Assembly (NCBI GenBank): GCA_035325445.1
Contig: DAOKZW010000011.1
Location: 39,815-103,814 of the forward strand
Direction of reading: 5' to 3'
Length of the DNA stretch: 64,000 nucleotides
Source: Flavobacteriales bacterium
Lineage (GTDB): Bacteria > Bacteroidota > Bacteroidia > Flavobacteriales_F > PHOS-HE28
Position numbers and translations under genes: made by a program. Shown one piece after another: positions 1,398 to 26,646 of the stretch. How positions within the stretch are numbered: position 1 is the first letter of the stretch; each line of letters begins with the position of its first letter. A model generated the notes under the pieces. The model searched no databases and was not told the DNA's origin. It worked only from the letters and a program-made list of their open reading frames with translations.

Positions 1398-3431
1398 ATG
1401 CCCCAACATCACCGGTGGATAGCCTTCTTGCCATTGCTGGCCTGTTGCATGCCGCATGCTGCCCCGCGGGCGCAAACGCCACAGGAATTGGATGCTTATG
1501 TGCAGGCCTCCATGCGCTGGCAGACGGATACCATGCGGGCGATGGAAGCCCGCTTCAGCCGGTCCGATGCGGTTTCCGGGCGGGCGTTGGGCCTGTTGAT
1601 CTCGGCCCAGATCGATCACCGGGAGAGCCGTGATGCGGCCTGCATGCAAAAGCTGGACAGCCTGCTGCGTCTGCCTTTCAAGGAGCCATCCGAGATCCGC
1701 GCACGTGCCCACCGGCTGAAGTGCGTGGTCAACACCGAGCTGCAGTTCATCCAAGAAGCCGTGAAGGAGGCTGAAATGGCGTTGGCGCTGGTGGATAGCA
1801 TGGCCGCGCCTGCCCTTTATGCGGAAGTGCTGTTGTCCAAGGCGGAAGCCTTCGCCGAGATCCCCGACTACAACCAGGCCCATGCCCTTTCCACCCAGGC
1901 CTACCGGATCGCCCGGCGTGGCGGGAGCGATCGCTGGATGGGGGCCTCGCTGATGTGCCTGGGCAACATCCAGTTCCGCCAAAGGAGCTTCGCCAAGGCC
2001 ATCGCGAGCTATCGGCAGGCCCTGGAGCTGGTGCAGGACCCGAACAGCCAGATCGCCGTGCACACCATCACCAACCTGGCCTCGGCATCCGTGATGGACG
2101 GCCAGTTCGGGCTGGCGGAGCACATTCTGGACAGTATGATGGCGGCATTGGGGCCACGCGACCCCGCTGCCCGGTTCCTTTGCCTGTCCACCAGCGGCTA
2201 CATCCGAAGCCGGCAGAAACACTACGACGAGGCGGTGGTGCGGCTCCGGGCGGCGCTGGCCCTGGCCGACTCGGTAGGGCTAACCGACAAGAGGCCCAAA
2301 ACGGTGCAGCTGTTGGCGACCACGCTGTGGAGCATGGGTAAACGCGACGAGGCCCTGGCCTTGGCCCAAGAGGCCTTGGTGCATGCCCGGCAAGACAAGG
2401 ACGTGCTGCTGCAGACCGACCTGCACCGGCGGCTGGGGGCTTGGATGCATACGTTGGGCGACAACCGGGCCGCCTATGAGCATGCACTGGCCTACAACAC
2501 CCTGTCCGACTCGCTGACCAAGGCCCGCTTCAACCAACAACTGGTTCATGCGGACATCCTTTTCGACACGGAACGCAGGGAGCACCAGATCTCGCAGCAG
2601 CAACAAGCGCTGGAGCTGGCCGCTGCCGTGGACCGTCGGAAGAACCTGCAACGGCTGGCGCTGGTGCTGGCGGTGGTGGCCGTCGCCATCATTGCCCTGC
2701 TGCTTTGGCGCTCGCTCCGGCGCAGGCACAAGCTGGCCGAACAGGAGCGGCAGCTCCATATCCAGGAAGTGGACGACCTGATGCACCGCAATGAGATCAG
2801 CACCATGCAGGCCATGCTGGACGGGCAGGAGAAGGAGCGCGAACGCACCGCACGGGATCTCCACGACCGGCTGGGCGCCATGCTCAGCACCATCAAGATG
2901 CAGGTGGGCGCCTTGGAAGACAAGGTGGAACTGGCGCACCAGGGCCAACGGGCGCAGTACGACAAGGTGACGCACCTGCTGGACGAGGCCGTGGGCGAGG
3001 TACGGCGCATCGCGCACGACATGGCCACGGTGACCCTGTCGCGCTTCGGCCTGGCCAAGGCCCTGGAGGACTTGTGCGACAATGTGCGCATCCATGGCAA
3101 GCTCGCGGTGGAACTGACCCTGTACGGCCTGGAAAACCGGATGGACCCTTCCCGTGAGATCATGACCTACCGGATCATCCAGGAATTGATGAGCAATGCG
3201 ATGAAGCACGCCCACGCCAAGGAGATCAGCGTAAGCGTGACCCGCGAGGCCGGGCGTTTCAGCGCCATGGTGAGCGATGATGGCCAAGGCTTCGACCCGA
3301 CCTCGGCCGCCGGCGGCATCGGCCTGGAGAACGTCCGCCACCGCGCCGCCTCCATGGGCGCCACCGTGCGGGTGGACAGCACGCCGGGCCACGGCACCAC
3401 CGTGAGCATCGAGGGGCCCGTGCTGGAATAG
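1398..3431 (+). CDS. TPR-containing sensor histidine kinase (HisKA_3 + HATPase_c, NarL-partner type)
   Basis: N-terminal signal-like segment, TPR-like helical repeats and a TM segment (LALVLAVVAVAIIALLLW). His box ERERTARDLHDRLGAMLSTIKMQ. ATPase motifs (QELMSNAMKHA, DDGQGF, GIGLENVRHRA). Confidence 0.88.
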   Translation: MPQHHRWIAFLPLLACCMPHAAPRAQTPQELDAYVQASMRWQTDTMRAMEARFSRSDAVSGRALGLLISAQIDHRESRDAACMQKLDSLLRLPFKEPSEIRARAHRLKCVVNTELQFIQEAVKEAEMALALVDSMAAPALYAEVLLSKAEAFAEIPDYNQAHALSTQAYRIARRGGSDRWMGASLMCLGNIQFRQRSFAKAIASYRQALELVQDPNSQIAVHTITNLASASVMDGQFGLAEHILDSMMAALGPRDPAARFLCLSTSGYIRSRQKHYDEAVVRLRAALALADSVGLTDKRPKTVQLLATTLWSMGKRDEALALAQEALVHARQDKDVLLQTDLHRRLGAWMHTLGDNRAAYEHALAYNTLSDSLTKARFNQQLVHADILFDTERREHQISQQQQALELAAAVDRRKNLQRLALVLAVVAVAIIALLLWRSLRRRHKLAEQERQLHIQEVDDLMHRNEISTMQAMLDGQEKERERTARDLHDRLGAMLSTIKMQVGALEDKVELAHQGQRAQYDKVTHLLDEAVGEVRRIAHDMATVTLSRFGLAKALEDLCDNVRIHGKLAVELTLYGLENRMDPSREIMTYRIIQELMSNAMKHAHAKEISVSVTREAGRFSAMVSDDGQGFDPTSAAGGIGLENVRHRAASMGATVRVDSTPGHGTTVSIEGPVLE

Positions 3432-3493
3432 CCTGCGGGCACTTGCCGCCACCCACCCGTGCCACCTAGTTTCGCGTCCCATCCCTGCGGGAC

Positions 3494-5581
3494 ATGATCA
3501 ACCTGCCTTCCCCTGCCCTCGGGCTTCTTCTTTTCTTCGCGCCGTTGGTGCTCGATGCCCAGATCTTCACCGGCACGGGCGCACCCATCCCGGCCAATGG
3601 AACACCCTTGGAATTGCCCTTGGAGGTGACCGGCCTGCCCGCGCCCTTGAGCACGGCCGGCTTCGGCCTGGAACAGGTCTGCATCACCATCAACCACAGC
3701 TGGCTCGCCGATGTGGAGGCCAGCATCGTGGCCCCCGACGGGACGGCCCGCATCCTCACCACGGGCCAAGGCTGGGACACGCACGACTACGACAACACCT
3801 GCTTCCGTTCCGATGCAGCCATCCGCATCGAGCAGGCCTATCCGCCCTACAACGGCACCTTCCGCCCCACGGAAGAGATCGGCTGGATCAACAACGGCCA
3901 AGACGGCAACGGCACGTGGAAGCTTCGCGTGGTGGATACCTACCCTTGGAGCGACAACGGCTCCGTGATCGGCTGGTCCATCACCTTCGGCAACGCGCCG
4001 GCCGCGCCCTACGTGCTGGCCTCGTCCGACCTGCCCATCGTGGTGATCAACACCGGTGGCCAAACGATCCCCGCCAACGGGAAGATCACGGCGGATATGC
4101 AGATAGTATACAATGGCCCCGGCCAGCCGAACTTCCCGGCAGGCCCGTTCAACGAATACAACGGCTTGATCGGGATCGAGCTGCACGGCAACTCCTCGAT
4201 CAGCCTCTCGCCGAAGAAGTCGTACACCGTGGAGCTGCGCGATGCCTTCGGGCAGGACCTGAACGCCCCCTTGCTGGGCATGCCGGCCGAAAGCGACTGG
4301 GTGCTGGTGGCCAACTACTTCGACAAATCGTTGATGAACAACACGCTCACCTACCACCTGGCGCGGGCCATGGGGAGCTATGCGCCGCGGCACCGCAACG
4401 TGGAAGTGCTGGTGAACGGACAGTACATGGGCGTGTACATGCTCGTTGAAAAGATCAAGCGGGGCGGTGGCCGCCTGGACATCGCGAAGCTGCAACCCGA
4501 TGAAACAATGGGCGACGGCCTGACGGGCGGATACATCTTGGCGGTGGAGCGGGACGAAGGCCCGAACAACGGGTTTGTCTCACCCTTCCTCCCGGCCTAC
4601 AGCGGGGGTGGGCAATACATCTACCTGAACTACAAATACCCCAAGCCCTCCAAGATCGTTCCGGAACAGAAAGCGTACATCCAAGCTTACGTGGACAGCT
4701 TCGAGACCGCGTTGGCCGGTCCCGATTTCCTGGATCCCGTTACCGGCTACCGGGCGTACGCGGACCCGGCCTCCTTCGTGGACATGTTCCTGCTGAATGA
4801 ACTGAGCCGCAGCGTGGATGCCTACCGGCTGAGCAGCTACCTGTACAAGGACAAGGACAGCCGCGGCGGGAAGCTGCATGCCGGGCCGGCATGGGATTAT
4901 GACCTGGCCTGGGGCAATGCGGACTATTGCGACGGCTGGTCCACGCAAGGATGGGCCTACCAATTGGGCGACTACTGCTCCGGCGAGTTTTTCCAGATCC
5001 CGTTCTGGTGGTCGCGGCTCCTGGAAGACCCGGATTATGCCAGCGCCGTGCGGTGCCGTTGGAATGAGTTGCGCGACAACATCCTTTCGCCGGCCTACGT
5101 GTCGGCCTACTGCGATTCCGTGGCGGCCCAACTGGACGCGGCCCAGCAGCGCAACTTCGCCATGTGGCCCATCCTCGGCCACTATGTATGGCCCAACCCG
5201 TCGCCCATACCCACCACGTATGCCGGGGAGGTGCAGGAATTGAAGGATTTCATGAACGGCCGCTGGGCCTGGCTTGATGCTCATTTGCCCCAAGCCCCGG
5301 CCTGCGACCCCGAGGTCCGGGTTGACGAGCTGCCACGGGCGGCCGGCAGCCCCTATCCCAACCCATTCGTGGATGAGATCATTTGGCAAAGCCCTTCAGG
5401 CCTGGCAGCGACCGCGAAACTGATGGACCCGCTGGGGCGTTTGGTGCGGCAGTCCGAGGCGGTCGGCGGCAACAACACCATGCAGCGGTTCCCGGTACCC
5501 GCCGGCCTGCCGCAGGGCATCTATCTGTTCCTCATCTCATCGGCGAACGGTACCAGCACCACCTTCCGGCTGGCCCATTGA
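3494..5581 (+). CDS. Secreted P-domain + CotH-family protein with T9SS C-terminal sorting domain
   Basis: Signal peptide. Proprotein-convertase P-domain-like block (ITINHSWLADVEASIVAPDGT...GNGTWKLRVVD...GWSITF). CotH core (SDWVLVANYFDKSLMNNTLTYHLARAMG...VEVLVNGQYMGVYMLVEKIKR). T9SS tail (PYPNPFVDEI...GIYLFLISSANGTSTTFRLAH). Confidence 0.8.
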   Translation: MINLPSPALGLLLFFAPLVLDAQIFTGTGAPIPANGTPLELPLEVTGLPAPLSTAGFGLEQVCITINHSWLADVEASIVAPDGTARILTTGQGWDTHDYDNTCFRSDAAIRIEQAYPPYNGTFRPTEEIGWINNGQDGNGTWKLRVVDTYPWSDNGSVIGWSITFGNAPAAPYVLASSDLPIVVINTGGQTIPANGKITADMQIVYNGPGQPNFPAGPFNEYNGLIGIELHGNSSISLSPKKSYTVELRDAFGQDLNAPLLGMPAESDWVLVANYFDKSLMNNTLTYHLARAMGSYAPRHRNVEVLVNGQYMGVYMLVEKIKRGGGRLDIAKLQPDETMGDGLTGGYILAVERDEGPNNGFVSPFLPAYSGGGQYIYLNYKYPKPSKIVPEQKAYIQAYVDSFETALAGPDFLDPVTGYRAYADPASFVDMFLLNELSRSVDAYRLSSYLYKDKDSRGGKLHAGPAWDYDLAWGNADYCDGWSTQGWAYQLGDYCSGEFFQIPFWWSRLLEDPDYASAVRCRWNELRDNILSPAYVSAYCDSVAAQLDAAQQRNFAMWPILGHYVWPNPSPIPTTYAGEVQELKDFMNGRWAWLDAHLPQAPACDPEVRVDELPRAAGSPYPNPFVDEIIWQSPSGLAATAKLMDPLGRLVRQSEAVGGNNTMQRFPVPAGLPQGIYLFLISSANGTSTTFRLAH

Positions 5582-5588
5582 GGCCCTG

Positions 5589-6674
5589 CTACGCGGCCTG
5601 GCCCACGCGGCGCAGATGCACCAGGTGTGAGCGGAGCGCGCTGCGCAACGTCGGGAATTCCGAGTAGCGCACGTTGAACTCGGCACATACCTGCTTCAGC
5701 CGCTTATTGATCTCCGGGTAGTGCACGTGGCTCACCAACGGGAACAAGTGGTGCTCCACCTGGAAGTTCAATCCGCCGAACAGCCAGTTCCACACCTTGT
5801 TCCCGGTGGCGAAGTTCACCGTGGTGTTCACCTGGTGGATGGCCCATTCATTGCCGATCTCCCCTCCATCGGTCGCCGGGTCCACAAACTCCGCCCCTTC
5901 CACCACGTGTGCCAGCTGGAACACCACGGCAATGAACAGGCCTGTCACGAACACCATCACGCCGTATCCGAGCAGCACGGGCAGCACGCCCACCTTGTAC
6001 ATGGGCAGGAGCAGGAATATGGCCACATAGCCCAGCTTGGTGGCCCAGAATACCAGGTGCTCCTTTGCCTTCAGCGGCTTCATGCGCGTTTCATGGCTCA
6101 CTTTGCCGGTGAAGTACTTGCGCATATCGTTGTAGAAGATCCAGAACAGATAGGTTGTTCCGTATAACGGCAGGGCGTAGATGTGCTGGAACCGGTGGTA
6201 CCACCGGCGTTGCTGGCCCGCGTGCACGCGCACCCACGGTTCGATGTCGATGTCATCGTCCATGCCTTCCACATTGGTGAAGGTGTGGTGGTTCTGGTTA
6301 TGCTTGAGCTTCCAGAAATAGACGCTGCCTCCCATCAGGTTCAGCGAGTGCCCCATGATCTCATTCACCCATTTGCGGCTGCTGTAGCTTCCATGGGCCC
6401 CGTCGTGCATCACGTTGAAGCCGACGCTGGCGAGCACCAGGCCCAGGAGGGCGCAAAGGGCGAGTGCGAGCCACGCTTGGGGCGGGGTGAAGAAGACGAG
6501 CACGACGTACAGCCCCACCATGGCGGTGAGCAGGATGGCCGTTTTCCAGTACAGGCGTCGGTCGCCGGTCTTCTTCAGGTTGTTCTCCTTGAAATAGGCC
6601 TCGGTGGCTTGGCGCAAACGGGCGAAGAACACGGGCGGGGTCTTCGCGAAAGTGGTGGACGACATGGGGTGCAA
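5589..6674 (-). CDS. Membrane fatty-acid desaturase family protein
   Basis: Three histidine boxes (HDGAHGS, HNQNHHTFTN, QVEHHLFP) and several hydrophobic segments. Confidence 0.85.
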   Translation of the reverse strand: MHPMSSTTFAKTPPVFFARLRQATEAYFKENNLKKTGDRRLYWKTAILLTAMVGLYVVLVFFTPPQAWLALALCALLGLVLASVGFNVMHDGAHGSYSSRKWVNEIMGHSLNLMGGSVYFWKLKHNQNHHTFTNVEGMDDDIDIEPWVRVHAGQQRRWYHRFQHIYALPLYGTTYLFWIFYNDMRKYFTGKVSHETRMKPLKAKEHLVFWATKLGYVAIFLLLPMYKVGVLPVLLGYGVMVFVTGLFIAVVFQLAHVVEGAEFVDPATDGGEIGNEWAIHQVNTTVNFATGNKVWNWLFGGLNFQVEHHLFPLVSHVHYPEINKRLKQVCAEFNVRYSEFPTLRSALRSHLVHLRRVGQAA

Positions 6675-6878
6675 AGGTACCGGTCGGCGGCATAAAACGG
6701 CCTTGGCGCCCCTCCCCTTGGCCGTCCGTTCCCGGAAGTGCCCCGGAAAAATATCGCGCTGCCGGTTGGAAATGACCTGCGGGCCTGTACATTCGCGCCG
6801 CTTAAACCGTTCGGACTTTGGCGAGAACGATCGGCGGCGGCAAAATTTAAAACCACACTCACTCAGTCAGTCGAACTC

Positions 6879-7244
6879 ATGAACATTTACGTCGCCAACA
6901 TTGCGTACTCCGCAAAAGACCAGGATCTCCGCGAGCTTTTTGAAGCCTACGGCGAAGTGACCTCGGCCAAGATCATCATGGACAAGGCCACCAACCGCAG
7001 CCGTGGATTCGGCTTCGTGGAGATGTCCGACGATAACAGCGGGCGCGCTGCGATCGAAGCCACCAACGGCCATCCGTTCCACGGCCGCGACCTGGTGGTG
7101 AACGAGGCCCGTCCCCGTCCGGAAGGCGGCAACGGCGGCTTCCGCAGCGGCAACGGCGGCGGCGGCTATCGCGGCGGCAACGACCGCGGCGGGTATCGCC
7201 GGGGGGACCGCGGCGACCGCGGCTACCGCCACGACGAGTATTGA
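6879..7244 (+). CDS. RRM-type RNA-binding protein with Gly/Arg-rich tail
   Basis: RNP motifs: MNIYVANIAY (RNP2) and RGFGFVEM (RNP1). C-terminal GGNGGFRSGNGGGGYRGGNDRGGYRRGDRGDRGY. Start trimmed to ATG at 6879. Confidence 0.9.
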   Translation: MNIYVANIAYSAKDQDLRELFEAYGEVTSAKIIMDKATNRSRGFGFVEMSDDNSGRAAIEATNGHPFHGRDLVVNEARPRPEGGNGGFRSGNGGGGYRGGNDRGGYRRGDRGDRGYRHDEY

Positions 7245-7268
7245 ACCACGATACTGCACAACCCAAAA

Positions 7269-7295
7269 GCCCTCCGGTATCCGGGGGGCTTTTTC
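7269..7295 (+). terminator. Rho-independent terminator after the RRM gene
   Basis: GCCCTCCGG-tat-CCGGGGGGC stem of 9 bp (one G-U pair), followed by TTTTT. Confidence 0.65.
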
Positions 7296-7377: not shown

Positions 7378-9870
7378 ATGTTCAGGTACTTGTTCCTTGC
7401 CTTGTTGGCCCTTGGCCCCTACATCCCGGCAATCGCCCAACGCGGGCCTGGTGCTTTCCGCCCCACGGGCCAGGCCTATGGCAAGCTGGTCGACGACCAA
7501 CGCAAACCCGTGCCCTTTGCCAGCATCAGCATCATGCGCGGCGACAGCGTGGTAGGGGGCGCCCTGGTGCAGGAAAATGGCTTTTTCGACGTGCCCAACC
7601 TGCCGTTCGGCCTGCTGAAGCTGAAGGTGGCGGCCATGGGCTACGCTCCGCTGGAGAAGGAATTCTCCCTTTCCGCGGCCCAGCCCTCCCTCGACCTGGG
7701 CAACCTTCGGCTGGCCACGGATGCGGTGGTGCTTCAGGCCGCCGAAGTGACCAAGGAACGCACCACCCAAGTGCTGCAGGTGGACCGCCGCGTGTACAAC
7801 GTGGAGAAGGACATCAGTGTGGTGGGCGGTGACGCCACGGACGTGATGAAGAACATACCCGGCTTGAGCGTGGATGCGGACGGCAACGTGGAAATGCGGG
7901 GCAAAAGCCCTCGGATCTTCGTGGACGGCCGGCCCACCATGATGACCCTGGACCAGATCCCCGCCAGCGATATTGAGCGGGTTGAAGTGATCACCAACCC
8001 AAGCGCGGCATTTGATGCGGATGCCACGGGAGGCATCGTGAACGTGGTGCTGAAAAAGACCACGCGCCCGGGTTTCAGCGGCCAGGTGCAGGCCGGTATC
8101 GGCACCAACGACCGGTACAATGCCAACGGAAGCCTGCTTGTGCGGCAAGGCCGCAGCTCTTTCAGCAGCGGTTTGGGCTTCGGGCTGGGCCGCCCCCCGG
8201 GGTCGGGCTACAGCCACCGCACCGACCTGGCCGACGGGCAGCCGGCGGGCTATTTCGACCAGGAGAGCGACCGGGTGAACGAATTCTTCCGCCGCAATGC
8301 CCGTTTGGGCTGGGACTACAAGCTCAGCGTGCGTAACACCATCAGCTTGATGCAGAGCGTACACGCGGGCAACCGCGACAGCCGCGAAGAGCAGCTCTTC
8401 TTCAACCGCGACGCCGCCCAAACGATCACCGGTCAAGGCCGCCAGCTCAATATTTCCGAGGGGCGCTTCCGCGGGCTCACTTCCCGTGCGGGCTTCCGGC
8501 GCGCCACCACCAAGCCCGGCAGGGAATGGAGCACCGACCTCACCTTCAACCTGGGCGACCGCCGCTCACCGGCGAGCACCGAGCAGTTCAACGAGGGGAA
8601 CAACGCCGTGCCGGTGGCACACAACCTGCAACAAAGGGCCAACCGGGGCCAAGACCACGAATGGACGTGGCAGGCCGACGTGGTGGATGCCTATGCGGAC
8701 AACCGCAAGCTGGAGTGGGGCTTCAAGGCCAACTACGAAAAGCAGCGGACGAGCATGGACGTGACCAACATGAACGACACGTTGCCCGGCCCCACGGCGG
8801 ACCCCTTCCTGAGCAACGGCTACCTGATCCGCACATACGTAAATGCCGCATACGTGAACTGGAGCACGAAGCTCACCGACCACTGGTCCATGCAATCGGG
8901 CCTCCGGGTGGAACAGAACAGCATGGCGGCGGAGCGCACCGACCAAGGCTTATCCTTCAGCTACAACTACCCCGATGGGCTGGACGACCTGGGCCGGATC
9001 TTGTTCCCCTCGGTATACCTGAGCCGCAAGTGGGATGCGGAGGATGGCAAGCTGCAGCGGGAGATGCAGGTGAACGTGTCGCGGAAAGTGAACCGCCCGA
9101 ACCACTGGCAGTTGATGCCATTCATCATGCCGGTTGATGCGCGTGCCTACCGGCAGGGCAACCCCTTGCTGCTGCCCGAGATGAGCACCATCCTGGAGGT
9201 GAACCACCTGCTGCCCTTGGGCGAAAAGGGCAACTGGCTGTCCTCGCTGTACGGCCGGTTCACGCAGGACGTGATCACCAGCTACACGGCCCCGTTGGAG
9301 AACAACGCGGACATCCTGTTGACGAGTTACCTGAACGGCAACAACAACCAGGGCTACGGTTGGGAAAACACCGTGAAGCTGACCCTCTGGAGTGGTTTGG
9401 AGGCCACGTTGAACGCCAACGTGCAATGGGTGGAGATCGGCCTTACGGCCAATGGTCGCTCCTTCACCAACACGGGACTGAACTATGATGGCAAGGCCAA
9501 CCTTTCGCAGAAGCTGCCCAAGGGTTGGACCCTCCAGGTGAACGGCGATTACAGCGGCCCCCGCGTGATCCCGCAGGGGCATACGCTGGAGCAGTATTCC
9601 ATGGACATCACCGTGCGCAAGGAGTTGGGCAAGCAGTTCTTCATCACGGCCAGCGCGGAGAACATTTTCGACTCGCGCGGTTGGGGCTCCTACTACGATA
9701 TGCCCACCTTCCGCCAGGAGAGCTACAGCACCTGGGGTAGCCGTGCCTTCATCCTATCGGCCACCTGGCGGTTCGGCAAGCCGGACACCTCGTTGTTCCG
9801 GCGGCGGCAAGGCCCCGCGGAGCGCACCGTGCCCAGCACGGGCGGTGGCGATGGCGGCGGCATGGATTGA
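7378..9870 (+). CDS. TonB-dependent-receptor-like outer-membrane beta-barrel protein with carboxypeptidase-regulatory-like N-domain
   Basis: Signal peptide (MFRYLFLALLALGPYIPAIAQ). Plug-like block (DATDVMKNIPGLSVDADGNVEMRG...IFVDGRP...IERVEVITNPSAAFDA). Long beta-strand-rich C-terminus ending in an aromatic-rich segment. Start trimmed to ATG at 7378. Confidence 0.8.
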   Translation: MFRYLFLALLALGPYIPAIAQRGPGAFRPTGQAYGKLVDDQRKPVPFASISIMRGDSVVGGALVQENGFFDVPNLPFGLLKLKVAAMGYAPLEKEFSLSAAQPSLDLGNLRLATDAVVLQAAEVTKERTTQVLQVDRRVYNVEKDISVVGGDATDVMKNIPGLSVDADGNVEMRGKSPRIFVDGRPTMMTLDQIPASDIERVEVITNPSAAFDADATGGIVNVVLKKTTRPGFSGQVQAGIGTNDRYNANGSLLVRQGRSSFSSGLGFGLGRPPGSGYSHRTDLADGQPAGYFDQESDRVNEFFRRNARLGWDYKLSVRNTISLMQSVHAGNRDSREEQLFFNRDAAQTITGQGRQLNISEGRFRGLTSRAGFRRATTKPGREWSTDLTFNLGDRRSPASTEQFNEGNNAVPVAHNLQQRANRGQDHEWTWQADVVDAYADNRKLEWGFKANYEKQRTSMDVTNMNDTLPGPTADPFLSNGYLIRTYVNAAYVNWSTKLTDHWSMQSGLRVEQNSMAAERTDQGLSFSYNYPDGLDDLGRILFPSVYLSRKWDAEDGKLQREMQVNVSRKVNRPNHWQLMPFIMPVDARAYRQGNPLLLPEMSTILEVNHLLPLGEKGNWLSSLYGRFTQDVITSYTAPLENNADILLTSYLNGNNNQGYGWENTVKLTLWSGLEATLNANVQWVEIGLTANGRSFTNTGLNYDGKANLSQKLPKGWTLQVNGDYSGPRVIPQGHTLEQYSMDITVRKELGKQFFITASAENIFDSRGWGSYYDMPTFRQESYSTWGSRAFILSATWRFGKPDTSLFRRRQGPAERTVPSTGGGDGGGMD

Positions 9871-9891
9871 TACGGTGGCGGCACCGGTTTC

Positions 9892-10866
9892 TCAAAGGGG
9901 CACTACCTCGAACGTGGGCGACCCCTTCAGGCCCTGGTCGTCGTAGTAGTCCACGAAGTGCAGCTTGTAGAAGTACCCGCTGCGGCTTTGCACGATGTAC
10001 ACTTGGTCGCTGTACACCTCGTATAGGCCAGTGTCGAAGGAATAGTCCTTCCAGTCGTAGCCGATGATGTCCTGGTCCAAGCTGAACGGATGGGCCAGTG
10101 TATCATCCAAGGTAACCTCGGCAAAGTTGCCCGAGAGCTGGGCCACCCGCGCGCCACTGTATCCGTTGAGCGTGCCGGTGACCAGATAAGCCTGGTAGGG
10201 GTCGGGTGGCCGGAACTGCTCCGTGTACTGGGTGAACACCAGATCATAATCCCCTATTGGCGGGGCAATGTGCACCACTTCCCCTGCGGCGAGGCTGAAG
10301 TGGGTGTAAGGCCTGGCGGGGTCTTTCTGCACCACATGCTCCCGGATGTTGGTGCCGTCCATGTTGGCTGTCCGGAAGGTGAAGCTTGTGGCGGAGGCCT
10401 CGATGATCTGGATCTTGCGCAGGCCGATGGGCATGGCCGAGGTATTGTATCCCATGTCCAGGATGCAGATGGGGCTGCCTTGTCGCCAATCGCCCAAGGC
10501 CACGCTATCGGGCCTCCCATCGGGCAGGTCGATCTTCCAGGTATTGCCGAAGCCCACGGTATCGGTGGGCTCGTTCATGGCGGCGCTGCTGCGGTGTGCC
10601 CGCATGAGGCGCGAGTAGTTCAGGCGCACCTGCCATCCGTCCGGGGCACTCTCAAAGGCGAGGTCCCAATCCATCTTGCTGTTCTGGCGCACCACACTGT
10701 ACGTGGCCAGGTCGAACCAAAGCTGCAGGTCGTAGTTGGGCCCCACGTGGGCCACGCATTCCACGGCCCCTCCCCGCGGTTGGCGCGGCACGGGCAGTTC
10801 GTCCTTCATGCACCCTGCCAGCGCCATGGCAAGCGCGGCCATGCTGCATACTGCTGTCCTCTTCAT
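9892..10866 (-). CDS. HmuY-like lipoprotein (putative haem-binding)
   Basis: Lipobox (ALAMALAGC). HmuY-like landmarks (MDWDLAFES...VRLN; GYFYKLHFVDYY). A 4-nt ATGA overlap joins it to the upstream TonB receptor. Start trimmed to ATG at 10866. Confidence 0.55.
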   Translation of the reverse strand: MKRTAVCSMAALAMALAGCMKDELPVPRQPRGGAVECVAHVGPNYDLQLWFDLATYSVVRQNSKMDWDLAFESAPDGWQVRLNYSRLMRAHRSSAAMNEPTDTVGFGNTWKIDLPDGRPDSVALGDWRQGSPICILDMGYNTSAMPIGLRKIQIIEASATSFTFRTANMDGTNIREHVVQKDPARPYTHFSLAAGEVVHIAPPIGDYDLVFTQYTEQFRPPDPYQAYLVTGTLNGYSGARVAQLSGNFAEVTLDDTLAHPFSLDQDIIGYDWKDYSFDTGLYEVYSDQVYIVQSRSGYFYKLHFVDYYDDQGLKGSPTFEVVPL

Positions 10867-20278: not shown

Positions 20279-21079
20279 TTAGGGCCTTTTGGTGCATACC
20301 ACTTGGTCATCAAACCGCAGGTCCACGGTGCTGTACCTGCGCCAATCGGTTTGTGGTATGCCTTGTTCATAGAACATTTTCAGTTTGTCCAGCCGTTGCT
20401 GGAACCGCTCTCCTTTGCCCATTTTCACCTGCATCATTCCCACACCGGGTATGAGGGTGATGCCTCCTTCCGCATCCATCACGGCCTGGGTGAAGAGGGC
20501 ATCCCACAGGGCCTCCTGCTTCAGGGCTCGCGCCATGGCATATATGGCCCTGCTGTGGCCGGGCCCCGGTATGGTGTCGGTTCCTTGTGCCACGTTCACG
20601 GGGGAGCAGTCCGCGAAAGGTTCATTCAGCTGTCCGGTCACCACGAGCACCCTTGCGGCGTAGTTGGATGCCAAGGGCATGGTCCATCCGTCCTTGTCGA
20701 TGTAGAAGCCCGACCCGTCGGCATTCACGACCCTGACGATGGGTTCGCGTTGCCGTGCCTTCACATGCAGTATGCCGTCCATGGTGTGGTACACGTCCAC
20801 GTCGGCCACGCAGGAGATGGTCCTCAATTGCTGCTCGATGGCCCTTTCATCCACCTTTCCGATGGCGGTTCCGATGACGGGCACTGTTCCGGCCGTCACC
20901 TGTTGTTTGAGCACTTCGGCATCGATGAAGTGCATATCATCGGCAGCATTCAGCTCCACGCGGATATCGCGCACGGGCACATTGCTTCCGGAGTGTTCCA
21001 CGAAGCCTAGGGCGGCAAGCGCTGCCAGGCCTGCGGCCACCCGCGCTGCACGACGCATGATATGCTTCGCCTTGCTCAT
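20279..21079 (-). CDS. ftsQ: Cell division protein FtsQ
   Basis: N-terminal TM (AARVAAGLAALAALGF) and POTRA-like region. It lies between murC and ftsA, with an ATGA overlap to murC. Confidence 0.8.
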   Translation of the reverse strand: MSKAKHIMRRAARVAAGLAALAALGFVEHSGSNVPVRDIRVELNAADDMHFIDAEVLKQQVTAGTVPVIGTAIGKVDERAIEQQLRTISCVADVDVYHTMDGILHVKARQREPIVRVVNADGSGFYIDKDGWTMPLASNYAARVLVVTGQLNEPFADCSPVNVAQGTDTIPGPGHSRAIYAMARALKQEALWDALFTQAVMDAEGGITLIPGVGMMQVKMGKGERFQQRLDKLKMFYEQGIPQTDWRRYSTVDLRFDDQVVCTKRP

Positions 21080-22455
21080 TTCCTTCTGTTCAACATGGCG
21101 GCGATGCCCGGCACCTCCCTATCGATATCCCCCGCCCCAAGGGCCAGCAAGATGTCGATGTTCCTGCCCTCGAGCAGCGGCAACAGTTGCTCCTTTGTAC
21201 ACAGCACGGTGTTAGTCCCTTTCACCTGCTCTGCCAGCCATGCCGAGGTAATGCCGGGCAGGGGCTCTTCCCTTGCCGGATAAATGTCCAGCAGGATGAG
21301 TTCGTCCAGCAATGCGAGGCTTTCGGCAAAGCCGTCCGCCAGGTCGCGGGTCCTGCTGTAGAGGTGCGGTTGAAAGATGCCCGTGACCTTCCTTCCGGGC
21401 CACATTTCGCGTACGCTGCGGATGCAGGCTTCGAGCTCCGTGGGGTGGTGGGCGTAATCGTCGATGAACAAGGTGCTCTCTGTCCGCGCCCTCACCTCAA
21501 ACCGCCTATGCACCCCCCTGAAAGAGGCGAGCGCCTTGCGCAGCGCGGCCTCTTGCACCCCCGCATGCAGGGCCATGGCCCCGGCCGCAACGGCATTCTC
21601 CACATTGTGCCTGCCGGGCATTCCCAGCACCAGGTCGTGCACGGTGCGGTCGCCGATGACCAGGTCGAAGTGGTAGGCCCCGTCGCGCACCGCCACATTC
21701 GCGGCGTGGGGTCCTTCGGCATCATCGATGCCATAGGGCACGGCGTCGCGCAAAATGGCGGCATGTTCCCGCAAGCGTTCCAGCACCCTTCGATGGACGA
21801 ACATCCGCCCTTTCACCAGGCCGGCGAAGTCGGCATAGGCGCGGTACATGGAGTCGGCATCCCCGTATATGTCGAGGTGGTCGGGGTCCATGGCCGTGAT
21901 GATGGCCTCCTCGGGATGCAGGGCGAGGAAGCTGCGGTCGTACTCATCGGCCTCCACCACGTTGATGACGGCGTTGGAATTGAGGAGCACGTTGGTGTCG
22001 TAATTGGCGCTGATGCCGCCCATGAAGGCATTGCAGGGTATGCCCCCTTCGGTGAGGAGGTGGGCCAACATGGTGCTCACGGTTGTCTTGCCATGCGTTC
22101 CTGCCACGGCCACGGTGCGCCGGTCCATGGTCACCAGGCCGAGCACCTCGCTTCGTTTTTTGATGGTGGCCCCTTTCTTGCGCCACCACTCGAGGATGGG
22201 ATTGTCCAAGGGCACCGCGGGTGTGCGCACCACGAGCAATTTGGCGGGGTCTGCCTTTTGGAACTCGGCGGGTATGTTGCGCGGGTCGGTGCTATAGCTG
22301 ACATCGATGCCCTCGTGTGCGAGCTGCACGGCCACTTCGCCGGGGGTGCGGTCATATCCTGCGACGGTAGCCCCTTGTCGCCTGAAATAACGCGCCAGTC
22401 CGCTCATGCCAATGCCGCCGATGCCGATGAAATAGATAAGGTCCGGGCGTTCCAT
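21076..22455 (-). CDS. murC: UDP-N-acetylmuramate--L-alanine ligase
   Basis: IYFIGIGGIGMSGLARY and VAVAGTHGKTTVSTMLAHLL (Mur ligase P-loop). Start trimmed to ATG at 22455. Confidence 0.95.
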   Translation of the reverse strand: MERPDLIYFIGIGGIGMSGLARYFRRQGATVAGYDRTPGEVAVQLAHEGIDVSYSTDPRNIPAEFQKADPAKLLVVRTPAVPLDNPILEWWRKKGATIKKRSEVLGLVTMDRRTVAVAGTHGKTTVSTMLAHLLTEGGIPCNAFMGGISANYDTNVLLNSNAVINVVEADEYDRSFLALHPEEAIITAMDPDHLDIYGDADSMYRAYADFAGLVKGRMFVHRRVLERLREHAAILRDAVPYGIDDAEGPHAANVAVRDGAYHFDLVIGDRTVHDLVLGMPGRHNVENAVAAGAMALHAGVQEAALRKALASFRGVHRRFEVRARTESTLFIDDYAHHPTELEACIRSVREMWPGRKVTGIFQPHLYSRTRDLADGFAESLALLDELILLDIYPAREEPLPGITSAWLAEQVKGTNTVLCTKEQLLPLLEGRNIDILLALGAGDIDREVPGIAAMLNRRK

Positions 22456-22456
22456 G

Positions 22457-23602
22457 TCAGCTCTCCTTGTTTTTTGCATCCCTGTTCTGGCCTGCCAGCC
22501 GCACCACTTCAGCCGCGATGGCTTCCGCGGCATTCGCCGTGCCCAGTGCGGCCATGCCTTGGCTGAGCCGCTCGCGCCCGGCGGCATCGCCGATCAGGCG
22601 CAGCACTTCGTTTCCCAGCTCCGCCTGTGCCTGGGCATCCTTCACCATCACGGCCGCACCTCTTTCCACCAGTGCATTGGCATTGCTGGTCTGGTGGTCC
22701 TCTGCGGCAGTGGGCAGCGGCACCAGTATGGCGGGCAGGCGCGTGAGGCACAGTTCGCTTACGCTGATGGCCCCGGCGCGGGCCACCACGAGGTCGGCCA
22801 CGGCATAGGCGAGGTCCATGCGGTTGATGAAGTCGTACACGTGCGCCCCGGCGTATCCGGTCTTTTCCACCTCCTGCTTGGCCTGTGCATAATAGGGGGC
22901 GCCTGTCTGCCAAACGAGCTGCACGCCCGCCTCCTTGAGCTTGGGCAATGCGGCGGACACCCCCAGATTGATCCCGCGGGCACCCAAGCTTCCCCCGGTA
23001 ACGAGCAGCACGGGCGCATCATCGCGCAGGCCGAACTGCTCGAGGCCACGGGGCTTCTTGCCGGCCAGCCGCACCATGTTCTGCCGCACGGGGTTGCCCG
23101 TCAGGCGGATCTTCTCCCGCGGGAAATACTTCTCCATGGCGGGATAGGCCACGCAAATGATGTCGGCCTTCTTGGCCAGCATGCGGTTGGTGGCCCCGGC
23201 GTGGCTGTTCTGCTCCTGGATGAGGGTGGGCACGCCGGCCCTTTGCGCGGCGGCGAGTACGGGCCCGCTGGCATAGCCTCCCACCCCTACGGCCACATGT
23301 GGCCTGAACTTGCGCACGATGCTCCGCGCCTTCCACATGCTCTTGGCCAGCCGCCATGGCAGGCCGATATTCTTCCACATGGCATGCCGCTGGAAGCCGC
23401 GTATGGGCAGCCCGGTGATTTCGTACCCGGCTGCCGGCACCTTCTCCATCTCCATTTTTCCCTCGGCCCCCACGAAGAGGAACCGGGTGCCCGGCCACCC
23501 CTCCTTCAAGGCGTTGGCAATGGCAATGGCCGGGAAGATGTGCCCCCCGGTGCCGCCCCCGCTGATCAATATCCTAAGCGGCTGCTGCATGTCGTTGTCC
23601 AT
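22457..23602 (-). CDS. murG: UDP-GlcNAc:lipid I GlcNAc transferase MurG
   Basis: ILISGGGTGGHIFPAIAIANAL and GGSLGARGIN. The start could instead be the internal ATG four codons downstream. Confidence 0.93.
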   Translation of the reverse strand: MDNDMQQPLRILISGGGTGGHIFPAIAIANALKEGWPGTRFLFVGAEGKMEMEKVPAAGYEITGLPIRGFQRHAMWKNIGLPWRLAKSMWKARSIVRKFRPHVAVGVGGYASGPVLAAAQRAGVPTLIQEQNSHAGATNRMLAKKADIICVAYPAMEKYFPREKIRLTGNPVRQNMVRLAGKKPRGLEQFGLRDDAPVLLVTGGSLGARGINLGVSAALPKLKEAGVQLVWQTGAPYYAQAKQEVEKTGYAGAHVYDFINRMDLAYAVADLVVARAGAISVSELCLTRLPAILVPLPTAAEDHQTSNANALVERGAAVMVKDAQAQAELGNEVLRLIGDAAGRERLSQGMAALGTANAAEAIAAEVVRLAGQNRDAKNKES

Positions 23603-24764
23603 TCAGGTTCCGTGCCGCCCCTTCCGTTCCGTTGGCCGTATCATACACGCTACGGCTGATGCTGAGCATGATGCCGAGCGACAGGCAGGTAAACCACATG
23701 CTGGTACCGCCCATGCTCACCAATGGCAACGGCTGCCCGGTCACCGGCACCAGGTTCACCCCTACCGCCATGTTCACCAAGGCTTGCAGGACGAGGCTCA
23801 GGGCGAGCCCCATGGCCGCCAACGAGCCGAAGGGTTTTTCGCACCGGTTGGCGAGTTTGGTCGCCCTGGAAAAGAGGATGAGGTACAGGAGCATCAGGCC
23901 TGTTCCTCCCAGGATGGACCCATACTCCTCGATGATGAAGGCGTAGATCATGTCGCTCTCGGGGTGCGGCATGTAGTTGCGCGAGGTGCCGGTGCCCGGG
24001 CCGTTGGGGAGGAGCCCGCCGTGAACGATGGCGATCTTGGCGTTGTTCACCTGATAGTTGGCCTCCCTGTCATCGCCGCCATGGTGCGTCAACCGCGACT
24101 GCCATGTGTTCAGTCGGGGCAGCAGCTCGGGGTTGGCCTTGGACAACAGCAACAGGAGCATGCCCGCACCCACGGCCATGCCGACCACGCCCAGCAGGTG
24201 GCGCACGGGCACCCGGGCGATGTACATGAGAAGCAAGCAGGTAGCGAACAACAGGGCGGCCGTGGAGAAGTTGGCGGGCAGGATCAGGCCGCAGATGGCC
24301 CCCAGGGGCAGCATCAGCTTGATGATCACTTCGCGGAACGTCCACGGTTCCTCCCTTGTTCTTCCGAGCACCCTGGCGAGGTACAGCACGATCACTACGC
24401 GGGCCAGGTCGCTGGTTTGGAACGTGATGCCTACGCCCGGTATGGCGAGCCATCGTGATGCTCCGTTCACATTGGTTCCGATGAGCAAGGTGAGGCCCAG
24501 CAGGAGGATGGTGACGGACAGGCCCAATTGCGCGAGCTTGGAATAGGCGGTGTAGCGGATCCTGCTGGCGGCGTACATGATGAAGCCTCCCGCAGCGAGC
24601 ATCAATGCGTGCTTGACCAGTATGCGGAACGTGCCCCCGGTATGCTGCCACCCCATCCACGAGGAAGCGCTATACACGGCCAGCAGGCTGGTGGCGCCCA
24701 GGAGCATGGCCACGACCCAGATGCTGCGATCGCCTTTGAGGTGCTGGTTGAAGAGGTTGTTCAT
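23574..24764 (-). CDS. ftsW: SEDS-family peptidoglycan polymerase FtsW
   Basis: Polytopic membrane protein with SEDS motifs (RWLAIPGVGITFQTSDLAR, PESDMIYAFIIEEYG, PVTGQPLPLVSMGGTS). Start trimmed to ATG at 24764. Confidence 0.92.
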   Translation of the reverse strand: MNNLFNQHLKGDRSIWVVAMLLGATSLLAVYSASSWMGWQHTGGTFRILVKHALMLAAGGFIMYAASRIRYTAYSKLAQLGLSVTILLLGLTLLIGTNVNGASRWLAIPGVGITFQTSDLARVVIVLYLARVLGRTREEPWTFREVIIKLMLPLGAICGLILPANFSTAALLFATCLLLMYIARVPVRHLLGVVGMAVGAGMLLLLLSKANPELLPRLNTWQSRLTHHGGDDREANYQVNNAKIAIVHGGLLPNGPGTGTSRNYMPHPESDMIYAFIIEEYGSILGGTGLMLLYLILFSRATKLANRCEKPFGSLAAMGLALSLVLQALVNMAVGVNLVPVTGQPLPLVSMGGTSMWFTCLSLGIMLSISRSVYDTANGTEGAARNLNGQRHAAAA

Positions 24765-24792
24765 GTTCCTGTGTCCTTGCCTGGCCGGCTGT

Positions 24793-25290
24793 TCAGAGGT
24801 CTTCGACAGCCCGTATGAATTCCGCTGCGCGCTCCGCGTGGTTGGCGGCTTCGTCCGTGCTGGGGCATGCGGGGCTGAACAGGACCCTTGTTCCCGGCTG
24901 CGCCAATTCCCGCGCGGCGAAGACCGCGGTCCGGAGGCAGTCCGCATTATACACCTGCCCGAGCTCGGCGTCCAAGGCATCCACCTGGTCCGCTGCGGCC
25001 TTCCCATAAAACACAATGGCATCCACATGCTGGGCCATGAATGCCTTGAGGCGGTCCTCCATGGCGGCCACCATGGGTGCCCCCGCTATCCACACCAAAG
25101 GCTTTCCGAGGTCGATGATGGACAGGAGGGCGGCGTCGAGGAAGGTACTGCTGCTGTCATCAATGTATTCCACCTCGTCCAGGGTGGCGACGGTACGCAG
25201 GCTATGCGGCCCTTGGCGCGCCTCGGCCAGGCCCTGGTCGCGCATGTCAACCAGTTCTTTCGCCAGCTCGTATGTCCCGGTCTTCTCCAT
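24793..25290 (-). CDS. Stand-alone MurD C-terminal-domain-like protein (165 aa)
   Basis: Collinear, by eye, with the last roughly 135 aa of the adjacent MurD. The matching blocks are HSLRTVATLDEVEYIDDSSSTF / [31 protein letters not shown] / NPVIWVVGG and GTRVLFSPACPSTD...ERAAEFIRAVEDL / [14 protein letters not shown]...[13 protein letters not shown]. It has its own ATG and stop, and codon usage like its neighbours. Confidence 0.7.
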   Translation of the reverse strand: MEKTGTYELAKELVDMRDQGLAEARQGPHSLRTVATLDEVEYIDDSSSTFLDAALLSIIDLGKPLVWIAGAPMVAAMEDRLKAFMAQHVDAIVFYGKAAADQVDALDAELGQVYNADCLRTAVFAARELAQPGTRVLFSPACPSTDEAANHAERAAEFIRAVEDL

Positions 25291-25311
25291 GTCCCTGTCT
25301 TGCCTTCTTTT

Positions 25312-26646
25312 TTACAGGGCACGCACGGCGGCCTTGAACTTCCGGCCTCGGTCCTCATAGTTCTCGAAGAGGTCGAAGCTGGCGCAGGCGGGGCTGAGGA
25401 GCACCACGTCGCCGGGGTCCCCCAGTTCATAACCGGCATTCACGGCCTTCTCCGCGGAGTCCACGTCCACCATGTCCGCCACGATATCACCGAACGCTTG
25501 GTGGATCTTGGCATTGTCCGTTCCCAGGCAAATGATGGCCTTCACCTTCTGTCGCACCAGGTCGCGCAGCTCGGTGTAGTTGTTGCCTTTGTCCACCCCG
25601 CCGACCACCCAGATCACCGGATTTTCCATGCTTTCCAGGGCGTACCAGGTGCTGTTCACGTTGGTGGCCTTGGAGTCGTTGATGAACTCGATGCCGTTCA
25701 CCTTGCCCACGCGCTCCATGCGGTGCTCCACGTTCTGGAAGTCGCTGAGCGCCTCCCGCACCACATCCTTCCTCACTTCCAGCACGCGTGCTGCGATGCT
25801 TGCCGCCAAGGAGTTGTACACGTTGTGTTTGCCCTGCAGGGCCAGTTCAAGGATGCTCATGTTGAAAGTGGTTTGATGGGTGTGGATGTGGATGGTTTCG
25901 TTGTGGAGATAGCCTCCCTGCTCCATGGGCACGCGGATGGAGAAGGGCCATTGGCGCGCGTTCACCGTGTGGCGTTTCAGCCCTTGGATGGTCTGCGGGT
26001 CGTCGGCGTTGTAGATGAAATGGTCTTCCCGCCCCTGGTTCATGGTGATGCGGAACTTGCTGTCCACATAATTCTCCATGCGGTTGTCGTACCTGTCCAG
26101 GTGGTCGGGCGTGATGTTGGTGATCACGGCGATGTGTGGCTTGAGGGTGCTTGTTCCATCGAGCTGGAAACTGCTCAGTTCCAACACGAGCAGGTCGTGC
26201 CGTTCCTTGGCGACCATCGCGGCGAATGAGGTGCCCACATTGCCCGCCAATCCCACGTTCATGCCGGCCTTCTTGAGGATATGGTGCAAGAGCAGGGTGG
26301 TCGTTGTCTTTCCGTTGCTTCCGGTGATGCCGATGATGGGCACATTCACATGGCGTGCGGCGAACTCCACCTCGGCGATCACCGGTACGCCCTTCGCGCG
26401 CAGGGCCTTCACCATGGAGGCCGTATCGGGGATGCCGGGGCTCTTCACCACCTCTGCTGCCTCCATGACCTTGGCCACGGTGTGGCCACCTTGCTCATAG
26501 TCCACCCCGGCCTGGTCCAGCTGCTCCCGGAAGGTGGCCGGTATGGGCCCGGCATCGCTGACAAACACGGGCAGGCCCAGTTTTTTGGCCAGCAATGCGG
26601 CGCCCACCCCGCTTTCCCGCGCACCCAGCACCACGAGCTTCCTCAT
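25312..26646 (-). CDS. murD: UDP-N-acetylmuramoylalanine--D-glutamate ligase
   Basis: [35 protein letters not shown] and [10 protein letters not shown]. Confidence 0.95.

Follow-up and report, generated by a model that had tools for sequence, protein, structure and literature searches.

The window analysed here is a stretch of 64,000 nucleotides (nt) from a Flavobacteriales bacterium (NCBI GenBank assembly GCA_035325445.1, contig DAOKZW010000011.1, positions 39,815 to 103,814 of the forward strand), and it carries a complete dcw cluster of the Bacteroidota type on its minus strand. The genes of this cluster are arranged in the order rsmH, ftsL, ftsI, murE, mraY, murD, ORF165, ftsW, murG, murC, ftsQ, ftsA, and ftsZ. 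ORF165, an open reading frame (ORF) of 165 amino acids (aa) located at 24793..25290 on the minus strand, begins with an ATG at 25290 and ends with a TGA stop codon at 24793-24795. It is a stand-alone paralogue of the linker helix and third domain of MurD, and an original prediction made from the sequence of the window was correct in placing an ORF with its own start and stop between murD and ftsW. The upstream neighbour, murD (25312..26646, minus strand), encodes a full three-domain protein of 444 aa, which scored 419 bits against the NCBIfam MurD equivalog model TIGR01087 (EC 6.3.2.9; cut-off 212) and was matched by the Pfam models MurD_N, Mur_ligase_M, and Mur_ligase_C. The downstream neighbour, ftsW (23574..24764, minus strand, 396 aa), was assigned from the ORF list and from synteny by tblastn, and its orthologue in related loci is matched by the Pfam model FTSW_RODA_SPOVE. 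On the same strand, ORF165 is flanked by spacers of 21 nt after the murD TAA (25291..25311) and 28 nt up to the ftsW ATG (24765..24792), and its guanine plus cytosine (GC) content by codon position (GC3 0.78, GC2 0.43) is like that of the neighbouring genes. In the region 25288-25314, murD and ORF165 share one reading frame with the TAA and 21 nt between them; readthrough of this stop codon in the window would yield a MurD with two C-terminal domains.

Homology and conservation of ORF165

Comparison of ORF165 with the neighbouring MurD using BLASTP gave a single gap-free alignment of residues 15-165 with residues 294-444 (28% identity, E 6e-19), which runs to the last residue and contains the sequence blocks quoted in the original prediction. 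TIGR01087 was matched over model positions 297-440 of 441 (E 5e-25) with a score of 88.4 bits, which is below the whole-protein cut-off of 211.95. Against the Pfam model PF02875 (Mur_ligase_C), ORF165 scored 21.7 bits, below the gathering score of 28.4, and 29 of 40 family members were matched by this model, the best of them at 9.7e-12. A phmmer search of the PDB sequences produced 11 matches, and the top ten were all MurD (best E 4e-10). The similarity between ORF165 and MurD is far beyond chance, and the proposed collinearity with domain 3 up to the C-terminus was borne out by BLASTP, TIGR01087, and phmmer and by the structural comparison given below. In the Pfam scan, ORF165 had no match to MurD_N, the N-terminal domain that binds uridine diphosphate (UDP)-MurNAc, and no match to PF08245 (Mur_ligase_M), the central ATPase domain with the P-loop.

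The structure of ORF165 was modelled with AlphaFold on the basis of 40 family sequences, and the mean predicted local distance difference test score (pLDDT) was 86.4. In the prediction, residues 5-25 form an N-terminal helix of low confidence, and after it comes a confidently modelled core of alternating strands and helices, where pLDDT is mostly 89-98 with a drop to 62 at residues 141-150. The model has the six-stranded alpha/beta fold of Mur ligase domain 3. When it was compared with the PDB using Foldseek, ranks 1-33 were MurD chains with template modelling (TM) scores of 0.58-0.68 on the query, and the best match was 7sy9_A, the MurD of P. aeruginosa (E 7e-9, TM 0.68 normalised to the query). 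Lower ranks were occupied by other Mur ligases and by 8qma_O (E 1.3e-4), which we take to be a MurE-like subunit of plastid RNA polymerase. On the evidence of AlphaFold, Foldseek, and phmmer, the core equivalent to MurD domain 3 comprises residues 30-165 (24796..25203, minus strand). The N-terminal segment, residues 1-29 (25204..25290, minus strand), was delimited by AlphaFold and tblastn and has a variable tip followed by helix 5-25. This helix is homologous to the linker helix between MurD domains 2 and 3, has a pLDDT of about 60, and is included in many loci in tblastn alignments that reach back to MurD residues 254-284. Relative to the domain 3 structures of P. aeruginosa (7sy9) and E. coli (1uag, 2uag), ORF165 has the same fold and is collinear to the last residue.

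Homologues were collected in a word-indexed search of 5.8 billion proteins, which returned 116 clusters of 120-194 aa (nearly all 145-183) at 41-72% identity; their named sources are metagenome-assembled genomes of Flavobacteriales or Bacteroidetes. When GTDB was scanned with one genome per species, relatives of ORF165 turned up in at least 136 uncultured Flavobacteriales genomes, and 80 of these 136 species representatives were fetched for inspection of the locus. In all 84 loci inspected, the order was murD, small ORF, ftsW, and the small ORF was intact at 158-177 aa; neither absence nor disruption in relatives was seen in this survey of dcw clusters. murD was full length in most of the related loci, and in a few it was cut at a contig end or disrupted. 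The spacer between murD and the small ORF ranged from 2 to 176 nt with a frame offset of 0, 1, or 2, and the spacer between the small ORF and ftsW was 4-30 nt in most loci. Two loci depart from this spacing: in L048, 2930 nt part the small gene from ftsW while the small ORF is still 23 nt from murD, and in L042 a gap of 567 nt precedes ftsW while the small gene stays beside murD.

Selection on the small gene was estimated as the ratio of nonsynonymous to synonymous substitutions (dN/dS) by the Nei-Gojobori method. In the ten closest genome pairs, dN/dS was 0.02-0.29 for the small gene and 0-0.14 for the MurD C-domain, and the window copy compared with its nearest relatives gave 0.12-0.28 at dS of at least 1; values for more distant pairs were saturated and uninformative. 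The small protein evolves about twice as fast as MurD (41-71% versus 58-85% identity in the same loci). The small gene is real, vertically inherited, and protein-coding, and it is under purifying selection. At least eight independent metagenome runs, from activated sludge, bioreactors, and digesters, also contain the identical sequence (word share 1.00). In one biofilm metatranscriptome, contigs of at least 99% identity cover 25083-25260 inside ORF165, another contig (24697-24896) spans the end of ORF165, the spacer, and the start of ftsW, and further contigs cover parts of murD and mraY. These contigs have low depth and could reflect DNA carry-over, so they are weak evidence for transcription and for co-transcription with ftsW. 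Taken jointly, the identity of ORF165 as a MurD domain 3 paralogue and its status as a real gene are close to certain.

Residue changes and origin of the family

Column statistics were calculated for 124 high-GC members of the family, which include the window copy, 65 low-GC members, and 80 MurD C-domains. The low-GC lineages carry a more MurD-like version of the gene in the same slot, and the family is in this respect wider than the original prediction envisaged. Positions kept in all three groups are D45, S46, T49, V89, G96, A122, V136-L137, S139-P140, R154, F158, and V162, and MurD and ORF165 have in common the motifs H, D-S-x-x-T, V-L-x-S-P-A-C, and R-G/A..F..V. The loop D44-D45-S46-S47-S48-T49 (25144..25161, minus strand) is equivalent to the MurD N-D-S-K-A-T loop according to the alignments and column statistics, and within the family its D-S-x-x-T pattern is retained at 95-98% for D, 90-92% for S, and 89-97% for T. 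The loop S139-PACPSTDEAA-N150 (24841..24876, minus strand), located from the alignments, is equivalent to the SPAC-type loop of MurD. Its S-P and the serine equivalent to S415 of E. coli are kept, and its aromatic residues are lost in the window subclade only.

The principal family-wide loss concerns the GGxDKG loop. V66-W67-I68-A69-G70-A71-P72-M73-V74 (25069..25095, minus strand) is a degenerate version of the MurD strand plus this loop in the HMMER alignment, and in the alignment with P. aeruginosa MurD, GGDGKG lies opposite GAPMVA with the MurD lysine opposite V74. In MurD the second G is conserved at 100%, K at 94%, and the G after it at 89%, and all three are lost in both family subgroups. 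Two other positions conserved at 89-100% in MurD are lost throughout the family, namely the residue after T (N in MurD) and the Leu of VLLSP, which is replaced by Phe. The GGxDKG lysine is presumably E. coli K348, which binds the alpha-carboxylate of D-glutamate (D-Glu) in MurD, and we take the D-Glu-binding residues in domain 3 of E. coli MurD to be T321, K348, S415, and F422. In ORF165 the T and S equivalents of this set are kept, K is replaced by V74, and the F/Y is lost in the window subclade. The Lys of DSKAT is present in 100% of MurD sequences and 80% of low-GC members, is replaced by R in 58% of the high-GC clade, and is Ser in ORF165. Only MurD and the low-GC members keep the H-R arginine and the DSKAT lysine, presumably R302 and K319 facing adenosine triphosphate (ATP).

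The ORF165 protein cannot be a ligase on its own because the UDP-MurNAc-binding and P-loop domains are absent and the loop with the D-Glu lysine is lost family-wide. The original prediction had judged a ligase unlikely from the two missing domains, which holds, and from the exchange of Lys for Ser and the replaced aromatic residues of the tail, which holds in the window subclade and fails for the family as a whole, in which most members keep K/R in the DSKAT loop and the F..NY tail. The loss shared by the entire family is instead that of GGxDKG.

Gains are of two kinds. R17 (codon 25240-25242) in the linker helix is present in 98% of the family versus 45% of MurD, is invariant in three alignments, and is the only residue nearly invariant family-wide but not in MurD. 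Found only in the high-GC clade are F50-L51-D52-A53 and L55, where the first helix begins, nearly all of the R120-A130 helix, P143, A149, E153, and D164. The helix L119-RTAVFAARELA-A130 (24901..24936, minus strand), defined from the alignment, a three-way comparison, and model helix 119-129, is almost wholly invariant in this clade, solvent-facing positions included, and is variable in MurD; residues R120, F124, A126, R127, E128, L129, and A130 are invariant in the high-GC alignment. The clade of the window has gained two invariant helix surfaces. ORF165 thus differs from MurD in being a separate protein that lacks domains 1 and 2, has lost GGxDKG, has fixed an Arg in the linker helix, and carries clade-specific invariant helices.

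The best explanation for the family is a single ancient event in which part of murD, its 3' end, was duplicated in tandem. The duplicated piece would have comprised the linker helix and domain 3, in the ancestor of a set of uncultured Flavobacteriales, and faster evolution would have followed, strongest in the high-GC clade that includes the window. Three characters are derived and shared by the high-GC and low-GC subgroups (R17 fixed, GGxDKG lost, VLLSP changed to VLFSP), and the occurrence of the gene in the same murD-ftsW slot in low-GC lineages was taken as support for a single event. In a neighbour-joining tree of 271 sequences, 189 stand-alone proteins were split from 76 MurD C-domains with six exceptions, two of which are fragments, and the separating branch was very short. 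No stand-alone protein is closer to the MurD of its own genome than to that of other lineages, which argues against recent repeated duplication or gene conversion. Repeated independent duplication and gene conversion were rejected because the identity of each copy to the MurD of every lineage is flat. The earlier statement that the two sequences are strongly diverged and do not represent a recent duplication scar agrees with this result and with the dN/dS values. Among the lineages that have kept the gene, MurD C-domains share only 56-80% identity. The full-length MurD proteins that scored best on the family profile (P0149 and P0151) share an N-terminal GxGxSGxG with the window MurD; the library carries no taxon names, and through this motif both are read as probably Bacteroidota-type.

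Function and alternative explanations

The best overall explanation, to which we assign a probability of about 0.5, is that an old duplication gave rise to a non-catalytic docking subunit of wall-precursor synthesis. The protein would dock through its former active-site face on a partner in the cytoplasmic synthesis of wall precursors, and docking would modulate or scaffold the pathway while catalysing no step. The broader part of this explanation, a non-enzymatic binding or regulatory role as a pseudoenzyme subunit in that pathway, is probable on the residue patterns. ORF165 has the features of a pseudoenzyme or truncated paralogue, namely origin from a multi-domain enzyme, loss of the catalytic parts, and purifying selection. 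In a fold of the strand-loop-helix type, one edge of the sheet should be lined by the loops that follow the strands together with the opening turns of the helices, and the corresponding edge in MurD would face the ATP-bound central domain and the substrate. The conserved residues outside the core (the D-S-x-x-T loop, F50-A53, R120-T121, and the SPAC-S loop) are predicted to fall on that edge. A whole helix that is invariant at necessarily exposed positions points to a protein contact, and a low-confidence linker helix with an invariant Arg is like segments that often fold on a partner. The exposed invariant helix, the conserved edge, and R17 together favour a non-catalytic binding subunit. A binding face is also supported by the D, S, T, S-P, R154, and F158 positions common to all groups and by the slow-evolving low-GC members, which keep the ATP-facing H-R and DSKAT Lys yet lack the D-Glu lysine.

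As the first candidate partner we put forward a Mur-ligase central domain, that of MurD itself or of a different ligase, with the enzyme's own domain 3 swung open. Such a domain is less likely than not to be the partner, and equally so is the more specific possibility that the protein acts as a free 'lid' on the ATP-loaded central domain of MurD or another Mur ligase, gating precursor synthesis or coupling it to the division machinery. Weak support for a partner on the murD side comes from L048 and L042, in which the gene adjoins murD, not ftsW, when ftsW is displaced. Background-removed distance co-variation of the small protein was 0.30 with MurD domains 1-2, 0.36 with MurG, 0.03 with the MurD C-domain, -0.06 with MraY, and -0.19 with FtsW.

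Several points weigh against docking on a Mur ligase. The co-variation signal is weak and confounded, in that soluble proteins pair with soluble and membrane proteins with membrane proteins. The placement of the conserved residues on the active-site face is deduced from fold topology. A domain 3 that is covalently tethered should win over a free one unless the affinity or abundance of the latter is high. The equivalents of R302 and K319 are unconserved in the window clade, and contact with the ATP-facing side is therefore not universal. Lastly, no fusion of a family protein with any partner (a Rosetta-stone protein) occurs among the search matches.

Precedents for such a role are available in principle. 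HisZ, which serves HisG, and the eukaryotic 'microProteins' are truncated paralogues that act as regulatory subunits; they too combine partial duplication, loss of catalysis, and a retained interaction surface, and the comparison with ORF165 is an analogy of principle that implies no homology. The C-terminal domain of MurT is the docking site for GatD, and MurT and 8qma_O are cases in which a Mur-ligase-type domain serves as a protein-protein surface and not as a ligase, which makes them precedents for the proposed role of ORF165. Both have retained multiple Mur domains and are part of unrelated complexes, whereas ORF165 is a single domain. Mur ligases contact one another mainly via their central domains (PMC10214165).

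The roles put forward in the original prediction (regulator or decoy, ligand binder, divisome adaptor) all remain candidates on the sequence evidence. A role as a small-molecule binder, in which the protein would sense, buffer, or carry a nucleotide or wall precursor (ATP/ADP ribose-phosphate, UDP-MurNAc-peptide, or D-Glu), is unlikely. The D-S-x-x-T and SPAC-S loops, which are ligand contacts in MurD, are the best-conserved positions outside the core, and H-R and DSKAT are retained by the low-GC members. These loops form only half of each MurD site, however, the rest of which is contributed by the absent domains 1 and 2; the loop for the D-Glu alpha-carboxylate is gone family-wide, the equivalents of K319 and R302 vary in the high-GC clade, and the invariant exposed helix and the Arg in a floppy N-terminal helix resemble protein contact surfaces. 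The data lean slightly away from D-Glu binding.

A divisome adaptor, which would tether something to FtsW or another membrane protein of the cluster and mimic MurD-FtsW fusions in trans, is about as improbable. The gene is directly upstream of ftsW with short spacers in most loci, and one RNA contig crosses the junction of the two genes. Natural Mur chimeras are known, and those that join MurD to FtsW have been described from Proteobacteria and Actinobacteria (Shirakawa et al. 2023, PMC10214165); in the MurD-FtsW chimeras the C-terminal domain of MurD likewise stands right before FtsW, an arrangement that recurs and is tolerated in dcw clusters. The chimeras are whole enzymes joined end to end, whereas ORF165 is a free, catalytically dead extra domain encoded beside a full MurD. 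Against an adaptor, the FtsW of the window has only about 14 cytoplasmic residues ahead of its first membrane helix, the gene is 2930 and 567 nt from ftsW yet beside murD in L048 and L042, respectively, the residual co-variation with FtsW is negative (a weak signal), and the search matches include no fusion of the small protein to FtsW. The data give no support for FtsW as the partner.

It is far less probable that ORF165 supplies an alternative domain 3 in trans, replacing that of MurD during catalysis and changing the amino acid added. The amino-acid site of Mur ligases does sit in domain 3, and a few residues switch the choice between D-Glu and L-Glu in MurD and MurD2 (PMC8788868), but the lysine loop of the family is degenerate with no new motif fixed, the cognate MurD has a complete canonical domain 3, and a free domain would be out-competed by the tethered one. 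The MurD2/MurL route was considered in the same connection, since there also an extra gene beside a murD-type gene alters step 2 of peptide-stem synthesis (PMC8788868). MurD2 is a full-length ligase and MurL an ATP-dependent epimerase with no known conserved domain (Ogasawara and Dairi 2021, PMC8788868), and both are reported in some Proteobacteria and Actinobacteria, not in Bacteroidota. ORF165 resembles this pair in its position next to a murD-type gene, but it has no sequence relation to MurL, it is a bare domain 3, and the neighbouring MurD is above the TIGR01087 cut-off. A link with MurL and MurD2 was rejected because MurL has no known domain, MurD2 is full length, and the distribution differs.

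The remaining two alternatives are contradicted by the data. A decaying duplication remnant, kept at most because its translation helps the expression of ftsW, would account for a rate of evolution about twice that of MurD and for the loss of several MurD motifs in the window copy, and it is very improbable in view of the constant length and intact state of the gene in 84 of 84 loci, its relatives in 136 species representatives, dN/dS well below 1, the gain of new invariant residues, and retention across divergent MurD lineages. An artefact in the form of a split or frameshifted murD, or an extension of MurD by stop-codon readthrough, could draw on the position of ORF165 in frame with murD, 21 nt past its TAA, and on the many 165- and 182-aa database 'proteins' that are MurD fragments, as in the frameshifted locus L086, but it can practically be dismissed, as no part of the upstream murD, domain 3 included, is missing, the same sequence recurs in independent metagenome runs, and every locus has a stop codon, with a frame offset of 0, 1, or 2. 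The shared frame in the window is a coincidence because the offset varies in this way in other loci.

The dcw cluster is among the most conserved bacterial gene arrays, and its content is considered well catalogued. Neither a stand-alone gene for the MurD C-domain nor the NCBI product name was the subject of any paper found by full-text literature search, in agreement with the earlier remark that such a gene is not known from described dcw clusters, and no dedicated Pfam or NCBIfam model for the family was found. The family is apparently undescribed; the domain itself is known, and what is new is its role as a separate, non-catalytic protein fixed in an operon. An extra dcw gene that selection maintains and that consists only of MurD's mobile third domain suggests that the cytoplasmic steps of peptidoglycan synthesis are controlled or assembled at a level so far unrecognised, and the gene is one more case, here from bacteria, of a truncated-paralogue pseudoenzyme. 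If the protein does act as a 'lid' regulator, it would be, to our knowledge, the first pseudoenzyme regulator derived from a bacterial Mur ligase, and the dcw cluster would gain a conserved member. ORF165 may also serve as a natural reagent for the study of domain 3 closure in Mur ligases, which are antibiotic targets. No cultured carrier was found, all named matches being metagenome-assembled genomes, and the finding is consequently testable mainly by heterologous biochemistry.

Related proteins, annotation, and minor observations

An exhaustive profile search of 1.84 billion representatives gave about 17 representatives above 140 bits, and many proteins of 160-190 aa were interleaved with full-length MurD at or below 118 bits. 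The 160-190 aa matches are of two kinds, i.e. fragments of ordinary MurD, which start at an internal Met and keep GGxDKG, and true stand-alone proteins, which have their own N-termini and belong to lower-GC genomes (40-50% GC; one labelled Salibacteraceae). Four low-GC loci were looked up (L085, L087, L088/L089, and L090), and all place the gene between a full murD and ftsW. The low-GC stand-alone proteins are 40-53% identical to MurD domain 3 versus 25-33% for the window copy. Carriers of the family are common in activated sludge and among lower-GC metagenome-assembled genomes.

The 165- and 182-aa database proteins with GGxDKG were excluded from the family as MurD fragments that start at an internal Met. 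L086, a 3.75-Mb contig from a frameshifted long-read assembly, has both murD and mraY broken; at 2948-5549, mraY is in pieces of 95, 61, and 256 aa and murD in pieces of 201 and 182 aa. Fragments of this type are very common in protein collections and can be confused with the stand-alone family. P0209 (379 aa) was rejected as a fusion of the family, as it contains a canonical MurD-like domain with unrelated extensions; its MurD-like domain 3 (residues 41-205, GGTDKG kept) is preceded by an unrelated N-terminus and followed by some 175 aa of C-terminal extension, and the protein may represent either another architecture or a chimera created in assembly.

Naming of the family is inconsistent across P0011, P0092, P0131, P0298, P0436, and others. 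Members are called 'UDP-N-acetylmuramoylalanine--D-glutamate ligase' (MurD) by the Joint Genome Institute (JGI) and 'cyanophycin synthetase', 'glutamate ligase domain-containing protein', or 'hypothetical protein' by NCBI. The JGI ligase name and 'cyanophycin synthetase' are wrong for a bare domain 3, and the definition of the family corrects the database annotation.

A sigma-70-like match at 24946-24974 (minus strand), inside ORF165 and about 180 nt upstream of ftsW, consists of TGGACG, 17 nt, and TATAAT (10 of 12 positions); the Bacteroidota consensus differs, so its meaning is doubtful. The scan with the sigma-70 consensus was uninformative for Bacteroidota, terminator-like sites were no commoner than in shuffled sequences, and the Rfam scan of the window gave no match. 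The longest reading of murC in the window (21076-22587, minus strand, 503 aa) begins within murG; MurC has 448-459 aa in related loci, and translation probably starts some 45 codons further downstream. murG and murC are separate in the window and in L002 and L004, unlike in L001, in which they are called as one fused gene of 840 aa (7720-10242, on a contig shared with L040). In L048, the interval between the small ORF and ftsW is occupied at 4700-7287 by a three-gene block that resembles an Mla-like transporter operon, with a permease-like membrane ORF of 270 aa, an ABC ATPase-like ORF, and an MCE/MlaD-type-like ORF of 322 aa, as judged by eye from the translations.

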